Assembly: GCA_965243135.1 (NCBI GenBank)
Contig: OZ251539.1
Span: 4,672,001 to 4,736,000 of the forward strand
Length of the DNA: 64,000 nt
Source of the DNA: Alphaproteobacteria bacterium
Lineage (GTDB): Bacteria; Pseudomonadota; Alphaproteobacteria; MPNO01; UBA830
Reading direction: 5' to 3'
Made by a program: the position numbers and the translations under genes. Shown here in pieces: positions 2,698 through 6,671 of the stretch; the first letter of the stretch is position 1, and the number at the start of each line of letters is the position of its first letter. The notes beneath the pieces were generated by a model. It worked only from the letters and a program-made list of their open reading frames with translations, made no database searches and had not been told where the DNA came from.

Positions 2698-4188
2698 ATG
2701 TTATGGTATCCTGAATGGATTAGGGATGAGGATCAAGAAATCATGAAGGATCAAACATATCAATTGTTGCATAATTTTTCCAACTTTGTCGCAGTTGGCG
2801 ATTGTTGGGATGCTGCGCGAGAATTAATGGCTACGCATCAGATAATTGAGGTTTCTGAGACCGAAGAATTTATTTTAGGAATCAAGAAATTATCAGAAAT
2901 TGCGAGAAAAGGTGATGACATTGATCGTCTCATTGCAATCGATCTAATCGTTCGCATTTCTAAATTTGTAAAAAAATTGCGCCCGAAATCGGAGGAAGCG
3001 CTTCGTCAAATTCTAACGGATAATATACCGCCTTCTTCATTGTTATCAAACACAAAAAAAATCCCAGAGGGAGCGAAGCCAGCAGAACTACGCGAGAATT
3101 TGGCAATAGCGCTGAGCTATGCATCAGGAAATTGGGTCGTTCCATATGTTGTGCGTTCCTTGTTGGAGGAAGATCGTTCACAAAGATGTCGTATGGAATT
3201 AGCTCGCCAACTAGCCACACGAGAAAAATCTATTGACAAATGGTTGCTTTCAGTAATTAATTTTCTTATGAAAGGCGTAAACGAAAAGGAAAGAAATGTC
3301 GAAATCGCCGTGACAAGACTGCGCGATACTACAACAGCGCTTCTTGGTGCCGCGAGAGAAAACCGGAATAATCTCGGGATATCGGGAAACTCCGGCGTTA
3401 ATTTTTCTAAGATGTGTTCCCTTTTCACGCCAAATTCGTCGTTTGCTAAACGCCCAAAATCTCTAGAGTCTTGTTCAATTGAAGTAGCGCGCTTTCTGGA
3501 TGAAATATTTGCTAATAAACTCATGCTTATCGTGGAACCAGAAGCGTACTCTGTGTTGGATATAATTCAAAAATGGTGGCAACCACTTTCTTATCCACAA
3601 CGATTGCGAAATGCATTAGATCCAATAAAGGATAAAATACTTACTGGTATCACATTAAGAGCCCGCTGGGGGCAGAAATCTGATAAGCTTCGATCTCGTC
3701 TCGGACAGGCATATGGCGATCAACGGTTAGCATTTAATCGTCTTGAACAAATTGCAACGGAGGAAACAGGTCTTCCTTCAGATATTGATGATTGGTTGAG
3801 GGGGCGTCGTCGAAAGACGAGCGGCGTAGAAAATGCGACTCTCGCTCTTCAATCAGTGGAAGAAGATAGTTTAATTGATGCTTTTGCACCGCTGCTTCTT
3901 GAAGCGGAAGTCGTACTGAAATCTAGACTCGATCCTTCGTTGTCTAATGAAAATCGAACCAGTCTTCGACTCGCAGAAAATGTAAGATCTTTGGCGATAA
4001 GACATGGATTAGAAGTTGTTGGAGAACGAGATGAAATAGTGGAATATCTGCCAGTATGTCATCAGACTTCTTCGGGTGAAATACCACCGGATCCGTCTGT
4101 TAAAATCGTTCGTCCCATGGTGGTGCGCAAGCGATACGATGGAAGTGAAGACGTTGTTGTTAAGGCAATTGTAACCGCGGTATCATGA
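2698..4188 (+). CDS. Hypothetical 496-aa helical protein with GrpE-like C-terminal beta-domain
   Basis: AT-rich ORF; C-terminus HGLEVVGERDEIVEYLPVCHQ...PSVKIVRPMVVRKRYDGSEDVVVKAIV parallels the C-terminus of the GrpE in this window (HGIGRIDPAGEKFDPRFHE...GTVVQVLEVGYRIHDRLLRPAKV); start could be ATG 2743. Confidence 0.7.
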   Translation: MLWYPEWIRDEDQEIMKDQTYQLLHNFSNFVAVGDCWDAARELMATHQIIEVSETEEFILGIKKLSEIARKGDDIDRLIAIDLIVRISKFVKKLRPKSEEALRQILTDNIPPSSLLSNTKKIPEGAKPAELRENLAIALSYASGNWVVPYVVRSLLEEDRSQRCRMELARQLATREKSIDKWLLSVINFLMKGVNEKERNVEIAVTRLRDTTTALLGAARENRNNLGISGNSGVNFSKMCSLFTPNSSFAKRPKSLESCSIEVARFLDEIFANKLMLIVEPEAYSVLDIIQKWWQPLSYPQRLRNALDPIKDKILTGITLRARWGQKSDKLRSRLGQAYGDQRLAFNRLEQIATEETGLPSDIDDWLRGRRRKTSGVENATLALQSVEEDSLIDAFAPLLLEAEVVLKSRLDPSLSNENRTSLRLAENVRSLAIRHGLEVVGERDEIVEYLPVCHQTSSGEIPPDPSVKIVRPMVVRKRYDGSEDVVVKAIVTAVS

Positions 4189-4220
4189 TGCCAACGCGCT
4201 AACCGAAAAAGGGGGTGTCC

Positions 4221-5050
4221 ATGGAAAATATGATCGGGTTGGATAGGCCAGCGCTTCTTTCAAGTGTACTAGATGAACGGTCAAGAAACCCCTTAGGTTG
4301 CGGCGTGATCAGGTAGTGTCTTTTTTCGAGTCGTTGCCGTATGTGGCGATGGAGACCTGCGTCAGCGCTCATCACTGGGGTCGGCGTCTGAGAGATACGA
4401 GGTAGAACTTTTCCGGCCCAGATCCTTACCTCAAATAGAACAAGAACGACGCACTGACAGCGAGGCGGTACAACGCCCGCAATTGCCGTCCCGAGGAGCA
4501 AGGACGTACACGGCGTGCTGTCGTTTCACAGGACGCCGAAAATGTTGGCTAAGTAGGGTGCCTAGAACTCCGACGAGTGCGCGGAGTTCGGCGTGGTCGC
4601 ATTCCAGAACTGTGCCGATGTGAACCAGCCGGTTCATCCGGGACGACAGCCTGCTGCCTGAAGAAGCTCGCTTGGCGACGTCGGTCAACCTTTTCGATCA
4701 GATCTGGAAGACCGCCGAGATGCAGGAGGCTCCGCGGAGTTGCACAGCGAGTTAGGCGACAATTCGAAAAAACTCCAGACGTCAGCGTGGCCACCGCGCT
4801 GACGGCATCGCTCGGGCTAGTGCCGCGGCAGAACGGTCCCGGTTCACCGTATCTGAAGGTGCTCATGGAAACAGTGAACTAGGTCGCCGTGGCGATTGCC
4901 AACCGAAACGTACGAATCGCTCGGGTGATGGTCCACAGCGTCCAATCTTATAGACCAAGGATTGCCGAGTCTCCAACCATACAGGCGCAGGCCGAAGTTC
5001 ACCCGTAAGTTGCATCCGAAAAATGCTTGCAACCCGTGGACGTCCATGCA
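4221..5050 (+). mobile_element. Degenerate IS110-family (IS1111-like) element remnant
   Basis: Broken frames still give IS110 motifs: MIGLD, LRRDQVVSFFESLP, AMETCVSAHHWGRRL, NKND, AEFGVV, LGLVPRQN, VAVAIANRNVRI; right end GCTTGCAACCCGTGGACGTCCATGCA resembles IS1111-type ends. Confidence 0.75.
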
Positions 5051-5090
5051 AGTATGTGATGCATCCATTGAATCAGCAGAGGCGATAACC

Positions 5091-6671
5091 ATGCCGGATA
5101 TTAATCGCGCGGCTTTTGATATTCTGGGACCAAACGAGGACGAATTAAGAATTTGTTTGGATTTTGGTACTGCCATGTCGAAAGCATGGGCATCAAGATA
5201 TTCTGATGACAGTACCATACCCCTTGTATTGGGAAGGGCGGCCGGCGAGGGTAATGAGTTGGCGGTCCCTTCGTCTATATTTATTTCTCAATCTGGAAAG
5301 ATTTTCTTTGGAAGGCAAGCGGAAATTCAACATAGAAAGGAAATAGGAAATCGGCGCCGAAGATTTGATAACTTGAAATCAGTTCTTTGCGAATCAAAAG
5401 TTGATCGAGAACTTGACGAGATAGGAGTATCGCGAGAAATTGATCCAACGGGTTCTCTTACAATAGGTGGTTTGTTAACTCTATATATTGCTTGGTTAAC
5501 TGATCTTTCTCTTGTAGAATTGGAACGGCAGATACATGCAGCAAATGAACCCAACTCTAGCGGACAAAATCCGAACAATCTTCGCTATGTTCGTAGGAGA
5601 TTTGCTATCCCATGCTTTGAAAATTCTTATGACGAATCTGTTGGTGGGGATCGACGGGCTCGATGGGCAAGAAAAATAATGAGGAAAGCATTGCTTCGGG
5701 CTCAAATTATCGCCGATACATTGAATGGGCATTGGGACGATCTAACAGTATACGATGCTTTGAGATTATTTGAAACCGTCCGGGGCATGGAAATTTCTAG
5801 GTGTGATCGATTGCTAGCAAGGGACGCCTCAGTTCGGGAGCCAGTTGCTGCAGGAGCATCGCGATTTGAAGAAATGATTACCGAAGGTAAGGCTAGGAGG
5901 ATGCTGCTAGTAATCGATGCGGGCGCAGGGACCACGGATTTTGCTATTTTTCAGGTTTTTTCTGATCAAGAAACGCGGTACGCATTAATTTCATCCGGGG
6001 TTTCTATGTGTCTAATTGCAGGAAATAGAGTCGATCAGGTTTTAATGGAAGTCATTCTTGATGAATGTGGCGTTGATTTAGCTCAAAATAACAAGGAGGA
6101 TAGAGAATCTTTCAAATGGGAACTGGAATCAAATCTCCGAAACATAAAGCAAATCCTGTTTCAGGAAAAGCGAGCAAGAATAGATTTTTTGTCAGATGTC
6201 ACGGGGGAATTGCATATTGACACTCTTCTCGAAGATCATAGATATATGAAATTAGGAGAGGAATTGTGCACAATCCGCGATAGGCTAATTGATGACCTTT
6301 TTCGAAAAAATCCTAAAGAATTGGATGATCTAAAAAAGCATATGCAAATGCTAAGTAAACCGTTTCCTATACATGTATTGCTGACGGGAGGTAGTGGTGA
6401 GCAGCCAATAATAAAAGATTTAGCCAAAGGTCATATTGTAGTTGACGGATTAAATATTGAATTTAAGGAGGTTCGGGCTCTGCCAAATTGGATCAATGAT
6501 CTACAGCGTGATCAGGCGGAATTAGTTGCTAGGGCATATCCGCAATGTGCGGTCTCTATAGGTGGTTCGGCTCGCGAAGTTCCCCAAGAACGAAACGATT
6601 TAGTTTCCATGGTGAATCCCGCAGCGCCAGGAGAGAGACGACTTGAAGGCAATTACATGAAGGGCGTATAA
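5091..6671 (+). CDS. Atypical Hsp70/actin-fold ATPase (nucleotide-binding domain only)
   Basis: CLDFGTAMSK, VREPVAAG, VIDAGAGTTD, VLLTGGSG and PQCAVSIGG correspond in order to DnaK motifs [35 protein letters not shown] and [16 protein letters not shown] before ATG 5091. Confidence 0.85.
   Translation: MPDINRAAFDILGPNEDELRICLDFGTAMSKAWASRYSDDSTIPLVLGRAAGEGNELAVPSSIFISQSGKIFFGRQAEIQHRKEIGNRRRRFDNLKSVLCESKVDRELDEIGVSREIDPTGSLTIGGLLTLYIAWLTDLSLVELERQIHAANEPNSSGQNPNNLRYVRRRFAIPCFENSYDESVGGDRRARWARKIMRKALLRAQIIADTLNGHWDDLTVYDALRLFETVRGMEISRCDRLLARDASVREPVAAGASRFEEMITEGKARRMLLVIDAGAGTTDFAIFQVFSDQETRYALISSGVSMCLIAGNRVDQVLMEVILDECGVDLAQNNKEDRESFKWELESNLRNIKQILFQEKRARIDFLSDVTGELHIDTLLEDHRYMKLGEELCTIRDRLIDDLFRKNPKELDDLKKHMQMLSKPFPIHVLLTGGSGEQPIIKDLAKGHIVVDGLNIEFKEVRALPNWINDLQRDQAELVARAYPQCAVSIGGSAREVPQERNDLVSMVNPAAPGERRLEGNYMKGV

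Follow-up and report, generated by a model that had tools for sequence, protein, structure and literature searches.

A probable divergent copy of the candidate anti-phage system PDC-M61: an Hsp70-type nucleotide-binding domain encoded next to a solenoid protein with a GrpE-like C-terminal fold

The window analysed in this study is a stretch of 64,000 nucleotides (nt) from an Alphaproteobacteria bacterium (GCA_965243135.1, contig OZ251539.1, positions 4,672,001–4,736,000, forward strand). Near its left end it carries two genes on the plus strand, gene A (2698–4188) and gene B (5091–6671), which match the two components of PDC-M61, a two-gene system listed in PADLOC as a phage defence candidate (PDC). 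Gene A codes for 496 amino acids (aa) when read from the ATG at 2698; the ATG at 2743 (481 aa) is the likelier start, judging from the homologues and the entry P0123, which begin there. Gene B codes for 526 aa from the ATG at 5091, which has a GAGG 9 nt ahead of it, and the same reading frame could alternatively be opened at the TTG at 4962 (569 aa). The two genes are 902 nt apart, with no intact gene but the pseudogene of an IS110-family transposase in the gap. Protein A matches the PADLOC model PDC-M61A (PDLC04727) with an E value of 1.6e-24, its residues 71–492 aligning to positions 63–486 of the 487 of the profile, and three further PDC-M61A models also match. Protein B matches PDC-M61B (PDLC04731) with an E value of 5e-80 (residues 14–510 on positions 118–573 of 588), and the first 117 positions of this profile remain uncovered. 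Given these matches it is nearly certain that the pair is a member of PDC-M61. It shares with this system the match to both models, the gene order and the location of both genes on a single strand, but differs by the 902-nt gap with the IS110 remnant and by scores that are far weaker than those of a second copy found in the same genome (see below).

The two open reading frames (ORFs) lie in AT-richer DNA, as had been noticed in an earlier reading made from the letters alone (the sequence-only reading). The content of guanine plus cytosine (GC) falls from ~0.65 to 0.40 near position 2500 and rises again near 6700, and it amounts to 0.37–0.46 over the two ORFs versus 0.64–0.71 in the flanks. The DNA between the genes (4251–5000) has a GC content of 0.57–0.59, unlike the AT-rich genes. 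DNA homology to the congeners stops at 2434–2474 in the left flank and resumes at 6786–6808 in the right flank, so that GC content and homology together delimit an island of ~4.3 kb (2475–6785, borders approximate) which contains both genes. In the 20 relatives searched there is no DNA match to 2475–6785, and gene A was found in three of the 78 genomes of the order (this genome included) and in none of the four congeners. The patchy distribution, the absence from the 20 relatives and the base composition argue for a foreign origin of the island. Thus, the PDC-M61 copy of the window rides on a horizontally acquired low-GC islet. Direct repeats flanking the island were not found, and a scan for promoters and terminators gave counts not above those in shuffled sequence. 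The identical arrangement is also present in contigs from three other studies, with identities of 95–100% (mostly at least 99%) and no alternative joint.

Protein B appears to be an Hsp70-type nucleotide-binding domain (NBD). In sequence searches the Pfam model HSP70 (PF00012) reaches only 11.5 bits (E 0.082), which is under its cut-off of 20.6, and the NCBIfam model PRK11678, a "molecular chaperone" of the YegD type, gives 21 bits (E 1.1e-4) versus a cut-off of 331. The B family profile has no match among PDB sequences at E ≤0.01, and in PHROGs protein B finds a single faint match (E 0.0059) and protein A none. The assignment to Hsp70 comes from the fold. With an AlphaFold2 model of B (46 sequences; predicted local distance difference test (pLDDT) 89, predicted template modelling score 0.89), the top 50 matches listed by Foldseek in the PDB are all NBDs of Hsp70, DnaK and BiP proteins (best E 8.6e-13), and VIA-align superimposes the model onto DnaK residues 1–385 with a Z score of 28.6 and a root mean square deviation (rmsd) of 2.8 Å over 344 aligned residues. 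A local hhalign alignment between the B family profile and the NBD of the DnaK encoded in the window (E 6.3e-5, 378 columns) places the phosphate-1, connect-1, phosphate-2, adenosine and connect-2 motifs in register and in the order found in DnaK, which bears out what the sequence-only reading had claimed for the five ATPase motifs; in global mode hhalign returned no alignment.

The motifs themselves are well preserved. All features of the two proteins given with coordinates here and below are on the plus strand. The phosphate-1 motif CLDFGTAMSK (residues 22–31, 5154–5183) is aligned with LDFGTAMSK against IDLGTTNS of DnaK, and D24, F25, G26 and T27 are at least 90% conserved in the 46 sequences. 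The phosphate-2 motif VIDAGAGTTDFA (residues 274–285, 5910–5945) is aligned to DnaK by the same method, with the stretch IDAGAGTTDFA in register, and D276, G278, A279, G280, T281 and D283 are invariant. The further aligned pairs are FDNLK with FAIKR, REPVAAGAS with NEPTAAALA, LLTGGSG with ILVGGMT, and AVSIGGS with VVAIGAA of DnaK. Taken over the motifs, D24, K96, E250, D276, T281 and D283 of protein B align to the DnaK motifs and are invariant or at least 90% conserved. The alignment of the model with the NBDs ends at residue ~497–508 of 526 and leaves ~20–30 residues; a conserved C-terminal tail with the consensus ..P.PPG.R.LE.YQ..G and a pLDDT of 56–69 occupies residues 506–526 (6606–6668). 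Neither the Hsp70 interdomain linker nor a substrate-binding domain (SBD) is found in protein B, which ends at residue 526, in agreement with the earlier claim. On the other hand, B carries ~140 extra residues inside the NBD relative to DnaK. On this model, protein B is an Hsp70 ATPase domain alone, equipped with the full set of catalytic motifs.

Protein A is not recognised by sequence. It has no match in Pfam (E ≤1), in NCBIfam or in a profile search of PDB sequences, none of its 56 homologues has a Pfam domain, and the ESM Atlas gave solely clusters of "hypothetical protein". The AlphaFold2 model of A (34 sequences, pLDDT 90) is divided into three parts, a solenoid, a linker and a C-terminal module. 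Residues 7–372 (2716–3813) are modelled as an all-helical HEAT/ARM-like alpha-solenoid with a pLDDT mostly above 90. For this part VIA-align finds Kap95p (Z 11.0) and importin-beta (Z 10.7), where a Z score of ~11 for helical repeats indicates the general architecture only, and a Foldseek search with full-length A yields only helical-repeat proteins, the best being designed armadillo repeats (E 1.7e-3). The sequence-only reading had seen ~430 aa of unrecognised helical sequence in this region; the helical character stands, and with the solenoid assigned to residues 7–372 the region can no longer be called unrecognised.

Residues 373–388 form a low-confidence linker in the model. The C-terminal module of A (residues 380–496, 3835–4185) comprises two long helices (384–411 and 417–435) and a small beta domain (438–494), and here the model resembles GrpE. 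VIA-align matches it to E. coli GrpE bound to the DnaK ATPase domain (1dkg_B, GrpE residues 79–194; Z 8.9, rmsd 4.5 Å, 102 aligned residues, 17% identity), to human GrpEL1 (9bls_B; Z 8.3, 108 aligned, 16% identity) and to Geobacillus GrpE (4ani_A; Z 7.9, 102 aligned, 18% identity). Among the 50 VIA-align matches listed, only these three GrpE structures cover A 380–496; the matched part of the model runs from residue 380 or 385 to 496 and takes in both bundle helices and the beta domain. Thus, the GrpE-like ending proposed in the sequence-only reading is supported at the level of fold. Conservation within the A family is likewise highest in the C-terminal segment. Searched against 1.84 billion representatives, a profile of A 380–496 has 511 matching clusters at E ≤1e-3; among the best 150 of these nearly all bear the module at the extreme C-terminus of proteins of 470–500 aa or are fragments. 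Taking both proteins together, we consider the domain architecture as described here highly probable.

The two genes belong together. When 80 genomic loci were fetched with B and searched with a profile of A, 20 of them proved to contain an A homologue, which in each case ends immediately before the B match; the hosts are alpha- and gammaproteobacteria. Both ORFs are whole in 17 of these 20 loci, and where they are whole the gap between them measures ~5–50 nt. The same order is seen in one viral contig (L121, the sole locus among 2.9 million contigs) and in a genome of the same order (L117), so that the adjacency of the two genes is conserved in their homologues. The pairwise distances of A and B are closely correlated (Mantel r 0.95 for 18 pairs, 0.84 within the gammaproteobacterial clade, 0 of 2000 permutations as high). 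This suggests that A and B are inherited as one unit; a correlation of distances does not show binding. A fused A–B protein was not found among proteins of 922–2630 aa, which is weak evidence, and a complex prediction of B with A 380–496 (score 0.01, mark 0.32, controls not folded) speaks neither for nor against binding. The three broken pairs are a locus with B split into two ORFs (L003:5806–7586), one with B fragmented (L018:5896–7056) and one with both genes truncated, in which a short product has only A residues 26–190 and B residues 166–330 (L005:5374–6585).

Genes similar to B are also found alone. A clade of solo B-like proteins of ~455 aa on a very long branch occurs without A in 59 loci, nearly all from Hyphomonadaceae and Terricaulis and also from Caulobacterales (L016–L080; for example, L057:5950–7329 and L019:5977–7338); in the loci inspected the gene adjoins an upstream gene that resembles, by eye, a sensor histidine kinase. 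As this clade matches the PDC-M61B model at E 2.6e-63, the model by itself could give false defence calls. A further B-like gene of 500 aa in an Acetobacteraceae locus (L010:5884–7386) matches from residue 70 of window B onwards and has no recognisable A. Its upstream ORF, in a high-GC frame, looks spurious, and the locus was excluded from the adjacency count.

In order to describe the neighbourhoods of the pair elsewhere, the ORFs within 6 kb were scanned in 16 further loci for PADLOC models at E ≤1e-10. A PADLOC-positive neighbour, weak in two cases (L015 and L044), is present in 11 of the 16 loci, which is a raw count without a background rate; to this extent homologues of the pair do lie in defence islands. 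Among the neighbours are PglZ and BrxL (L014), BrxA/B/C together with a DruE-like helicase (L062), DrmB (L011), Dsr1 with a type IV restriction enzyme and a GajB-like helicase (L032), an E1-E2/JAB gene (L002) and an AriA-like ATPase (L001). AriA/NsnB-like matches are also among those of the scan, and in L006 the pair is flanked by type I restriction, methylase and specificity genes and by an AriA/NsnB-like ATPase. In four gammaproteobacterial loci (L006, L009, L030 and L035, at ~7440–9470) a conserved ATPase of ~610–660 aa follows the pair; that of L006 matches the NsnB, HEC-03B, PDC-M55A and AriA models, and the flanking ORFs of L009, L030 and L035 are homologous to one another. This ATPase may act as a third partner, or it may represent an embedded system of its own.

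PDC-M61 itself comes from a "guilt-by-embedding" study which clustered the genes lying inside BREX, DISARM and type I restriction-modification operons and put 145 untested candidates into PADLOC (Payne et al. 2024, bioRxiv 10.1101/2024.01.29.577857). The neighbourhoods of its relatives, with type I restriction-modification, BREX and DISARM, are thus of the kind by which the candidate was found. The words Hsp70, GrpE, DnaK and chaperone do not occur in the main text of this preprint. A full-text search for "PDC-M61" found a single paper, a genome-wide association study of P. aeruginosa which reports that the presence of PDC-M61 is associated with fewer prophages, and our literature searches found no description of a defence pair made of a solenoid–GrpE protein and an Hsp70 NBD. 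Consequently, the proposal of the sequence-only reading that the system is undescribed has to be given up, since PADLOC already lists the pair; PDC-M61 is nevertheless catalogued rather than characterised, and the domain-level reading of its proteins appears to be new in print.

The gap between the genes of the window copy contains a decayed remnant of an IS110-family transposase (4277–5000, plus strand, extent approximate) with stops and frameshifts. In a tblastn search a 42-aa piece of it (4277–4402) matches 864 plasmid records, the annotated matches being "IS110 family transposase" (62% identity, E 1e-6). Every frame in the gap is broken by stops, so that no intact transposase gene is left; a whole-genome search with the Pfam IS110 models PF01548 and PF02371 does not list the site, and there is no second copy of the gap DNA elsewhere in the genome. 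The similarity to IS110, the broken frames and the lack of another genomic copy indicate that the gap is an old, decayed insertion.

Next to this insertion protein B is shortened. An N-terminal module of ~45 residues with the consensus M..EAKALVRSLLGRL...G.AF.LPEGRLS..EVEALR.L is present in 102 of 120 B homologues, and most of the 18 homologues that lack it are clearly cut gene calls. The module is missing from window B, P0004 and P0055, all with an intact phosphate-1 motif, and likewise from P0022. A module profile built from 90 homologues finds no trace of it in 4151–5160 in any of the six frames (E ≤100). For the same reason a small ORF at 4222 (MENMIG...), considered as the original start of B, was dropped. 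P0004 is the nearest relative of window B (69% identity, differing at 31% of the residues) and begins at the same residue; the two form a clade with 100/100 support that is nested among module-bearing relatives. Of the 68 alignable positions with a conservation of at least 90%, P0004 retains all 68 and window B 65, the three changes in window B being S to C, D to G and L to I. We read this as a shared and old loss of the module after which the remainder of B stayed under constraint. The window copy is thus a derived form of PDC-M61. Neither the IS110 remnant nor the missing module, nor the second pair described next, had been noticed in the sequence-only reading.

The genome contains a second PDC-M61 pair (G000:C1:1033284–1036496; L120:7285–8766 and 8818–10497). 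It encodes an A protein of 493 aa and a B protein of 559 aa, the genes, in the same order, are 51 nt apart, intact and without insertion, and they are located in low-GC DNA (0.39–0.47). Its PADLOC E values are 5e-84 for A and 7.9e-135 for B, compared to 1.6e-24 and 5e-80 for the window copy. As the second-copy B is only 29% identical to window B and branches apart from it in the tree, the sequences indicate two separate acquisitions.

How might such a pair work? Our best explanation, which we consider probable, is that the locus is a divergent copy of a two-gene candidate anti-phage system in which an Hsp70 NBD is combined with a solenoid–GrpE-like partner; an anti-phage role of the PDC-M61 family as a whole is likewise the more probable case. 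In the complex of GrpE with DnaK (1DKG) the bundle helices and the beta domain of GrpE contact the NBD of DnaK. By analogy, A and B would bind each other, with the GrpE-like module seated on the ATPase domain of B and controlling its ADP/ATP state in the way GrpE acts on DnaK. The chances that the module acts on B appear even. The solenoid of A could serve as a surface which senses or holds a phage or host protein, and the nucleotide-driven opening and closing of B would then be the switch from recognition to response. As the pair contains no nuclease, protease, NADase or membrane domain, the output would probably be the binding or remodelling of a target protein and not its degradation. The private exchange-factor/ATPase switch, an idea put forward in the sequence-only reading, is inferred from the fold likeness and the gene linkage. 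At most, the locus would work like a DnaK–GrpE pair reduced to the ATPase and the exchange module.

Several of our findings weigh against this interpretation, and they have to be considered together with the readings which they favour. The window copy might be a decaying, non-functional remnant in which the IS110 element cut off the 5′ end of B and uncoupled B from the promoter of A, while the intact second copy does the work. In fact the genes of the window copy are separated by 902 nt with a dead transposase between them, this remnant is located exactly where the N-terminal module of B should be encoded, and no trace of the module, which 102 of 120 homologues possess, is left there in any frame. 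The far weaker PADLOC scores of both proteins and the three changes at conserved positions of B point in the same direction, and with broken pairs in three of the 20 related loci decay seems to be common in the family. Nevertheless, both ORFs are open over their full length, B keeps 65 of the 68 conserved positions and every catalytic residue, the GAGG is in place ahead of the ATG at 5091, and the same arrangement has been sequenced in contigs from three other studies. In addition, P0004 has the same short start at 69% identity and keeps 68 of 68 positions, which argues that the short form has persisted through much divergence. The remaining B still looks constrained. We regard the decay of the window copy as a serious possibility which falls somewhat short of an even chance, and whether this copy is still active appears almost balanced, with a slight leaning to the negative.

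The other readings concern the function of the family or the fold of A. The pair might have nothing to do with immunity. Mobile islands would then carry it as an ATPase module with a specialised function, chaperone-like or regulatory, which might serve stress tolerance, for instance, or the maintenance of the element. In favour of this, five of the 16 loci scanned have no defence neighbour (L004, L005, L008, L013 and L018) and the count for the others is a raw one, no effector domain was recognised in A or B, and the solo B-like protein of the 59 Hyphomonadaceae/Terricaulis loci exists without A beside the histidine kinase-like gene. NBD-only derivatives of DnaK such as YegD are widespread and are described without a known defence role in the review PMC13580251, and Payne et al. 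label the candidates untested, no experiment being known that shows defence by PDC-M61. On the contrary, in many unrelated genomes the pair is found in or next to BREX, DISARM, type I restriction-modification, Dsr1, type IV restriction and Gabija-like genes, its distribution is patchy and its composition foreign, PDC-M61 was first found through its embedding in defence operons, and it goes along with fewer prophages in P. aeruginosa. A role outside of immunity is therefore unlikely in our view. Mimicry of the host chaperones is about as unlikely. In this case the module of A would bind the host DnaK and the NBD of B the host GrpE or a hijacking phage protein, so that the pair would act as a guard or decoy of DnaK/DnaJ/GrpE. 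The folds of A and B are indeed those of the host pair, some phages require DnaK/DnaJ/GrpE for their replication, and the host genes are intact in the window. There is also a published precedent, in that a bacterial defence protein related to nucleotide-binding leucine-rich repeat (NLR) proteins senses phage through DnaJ (PMC12169576). However, A and B are closely co-inherited in distant hosts and are only 16–18% identical to real GrpE and DnaK, which is more in keeping with a private pair, and A lacks the N-terminal helix of GrpE. In GrpE this helix contacts the substrate-binding side of DnaK. Finally, the GrpE likeness of A might be due to chance, the helix-plus-sheet domain doing another job, for example, dimerisation or nucleic-acid binding. 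The Z scores of 7.9–8.9 for a domain of ~115 residues are just above the level which the VIA-align notes call common, and the Pfam model GrpE (PF01025) has no match to A at E ≤1 and in a whole-genome search detects only the housekeeping grpE. A profile of A finds nothing relevant among the PDB sequences, the best 150 of the 511 matches to the domain profile are all A-type proteins, and the match to 1dkg_B begins only at GrpE residue 79, the long N-terminal helix being missing from A. When the C-terminal profile of A is aligned with 30 GrpE sequences by hhalign, the result is not significant (probability 0.8%, P 0.068), yet the aligned segments are collinear and stand in the register to be expected. 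Moreover, three independent GrpE structures, bacterial as well as human mitochondrial, are the only listed matches for this region, they cover 102–108 of its 117 residues with the same order of elements, and the neighbouring gene codes for the very domain to which GrpE binds. We consider a chance resemblance very improbable. Because of the non-significant hhalign result and the missing N-terminal helix we call the modelled C-terminus of A GrpE-like by fold and do not file A in the GrpE family.

Our preferred reading, a private pair of an Hsp70 NBD and a GrpE-like partner, can be compared to systems in which such domains are already known. With DnaK and GrpE the pair shares the NBD fold with all catalytic motifs (B) and the bundle helices and beta domain (A). 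In contrast to DnaK, B has no linker and no SBD and its NBD is larger by the ~140 residues mentioned above; A has a solenoid of 370 residues in place of the long N-terminal helix of GrpE. Furthermore, the window pair is without a J-protein, and neither protein passes the Pfam thresholds. The YegD-type DnaK paralogues are described as NBD-only proteins without linker, basket or lid (PMC13580251), and B has the Hsp70 NBD alone in common with them, along with the weak match to PRK11678. However, with 21 bits versus the cut-off of 331 B is not a YegD equivalog, and while window B has A as its partner, no GrpE-like partner gene of YegD is mentioned in the text consulted from that review.

Two published groups of conflict systems also have Hsp70-type parts. 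In the CnuD/CnuCD proteins of CoCoNuT type III, an Hsp70-like ATPase is combined with HEAT-like repeats and a role in defence is predicted (Bell et al., eLife 2024, PMC11090510). The Hsp70-like ATPase domain and the HEAT-like helical repeats are shared with the window pair. CnuD keeps the NBD/SBD unit, has degenerate Walker A-like ATP-binding motifs and is partnered with McrBC-type GTPases and HEPN RNases (PMC11090510), whereas window B has intact ATPase motifs and no SBD, the repeats are on the other protein (A), and a GrpE-like module is present with no McrBC or HEPN partner seen. The word GrpE has no occurrence in PMC11090510. The GAP1-N2 GTPase conflict systems include HSP70, GrpE and also HSP70 without the peptide-binding domain (Kaur et al., eLife 2020, PMC7159879). 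As predicted conflict systems with an NBD-only Hsp70 and a GrpE-type part they resemble the window pair. They are built around a GTPase and proteins carrying FNIII, DnaJ or TPR domains, are found mainly in actinobacteria and firmicutes and contain a recognisable GrpE (PMC7159879). The window pair differs from them in consisting of two genes only, in having no GTPase and in its proteobacterial hosts.

Elsewhere in the window the chaperone genes of the host are complete, as the sequence-only reading had noted: hrcA (55740–56828), grpE (~56825–57523), dnaK (58565–60481) and dnaJ (60547–61668) were all located. No J-domain gene is found on the island, which agrees with the earlier observation. A Transposase_29 gene (53482–55629) lies directly upstream of hrcA. 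Since a DUF1848 gene on the minus strand (57385–58377) is located between grpE and dnaK, the heat-shock set is not one unbroken operon. The defence-type loci which the same reading had placed within ~10 kb of the pair are also there, in a run (9993–15963) over which the GC content drifts down to 0.51–0.60. It consists of a Schlafen/AlbA_2 gene with HATPase_c_4 (9993–11288), DuOB (11126–11659), DUF488 (11923–12609), TIR_2 (13387–14553), SLOG cluster 2 (14532–15383) and a ThsB-type TIR gene (15124–15963).

The most far-reaching version of our proposal is a tentative and rather unlikely one: PDC-M61 would be an immune switch made up of a private Hsp70-type ATPase and a dedicated exchange factor of the GrpE type, the latter fused to a solenoid that acts as sensor. 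Such a switch would be the first example of a chaperone nucleotide cycle without a client-binding domain serving as an anti-phage signalling engine, and the short form of the window would show that the N-terminal module of B is dispensable. PDC-M61 is picked up by a widely used annotation tool, and we found no printed account of its domains; the domain reading, if true, turns it into a hypothesis that can be tested at the bench. If true, it would also be a third, independent case in which Hsp70-type domains have been recruited into bacterial conflict systems. Finally, with one intact copy and one copy that is scarred by an insertion sequence and shortened at the N-terminus of B, this genome offers a natural experiment on which parts of the system are needed.

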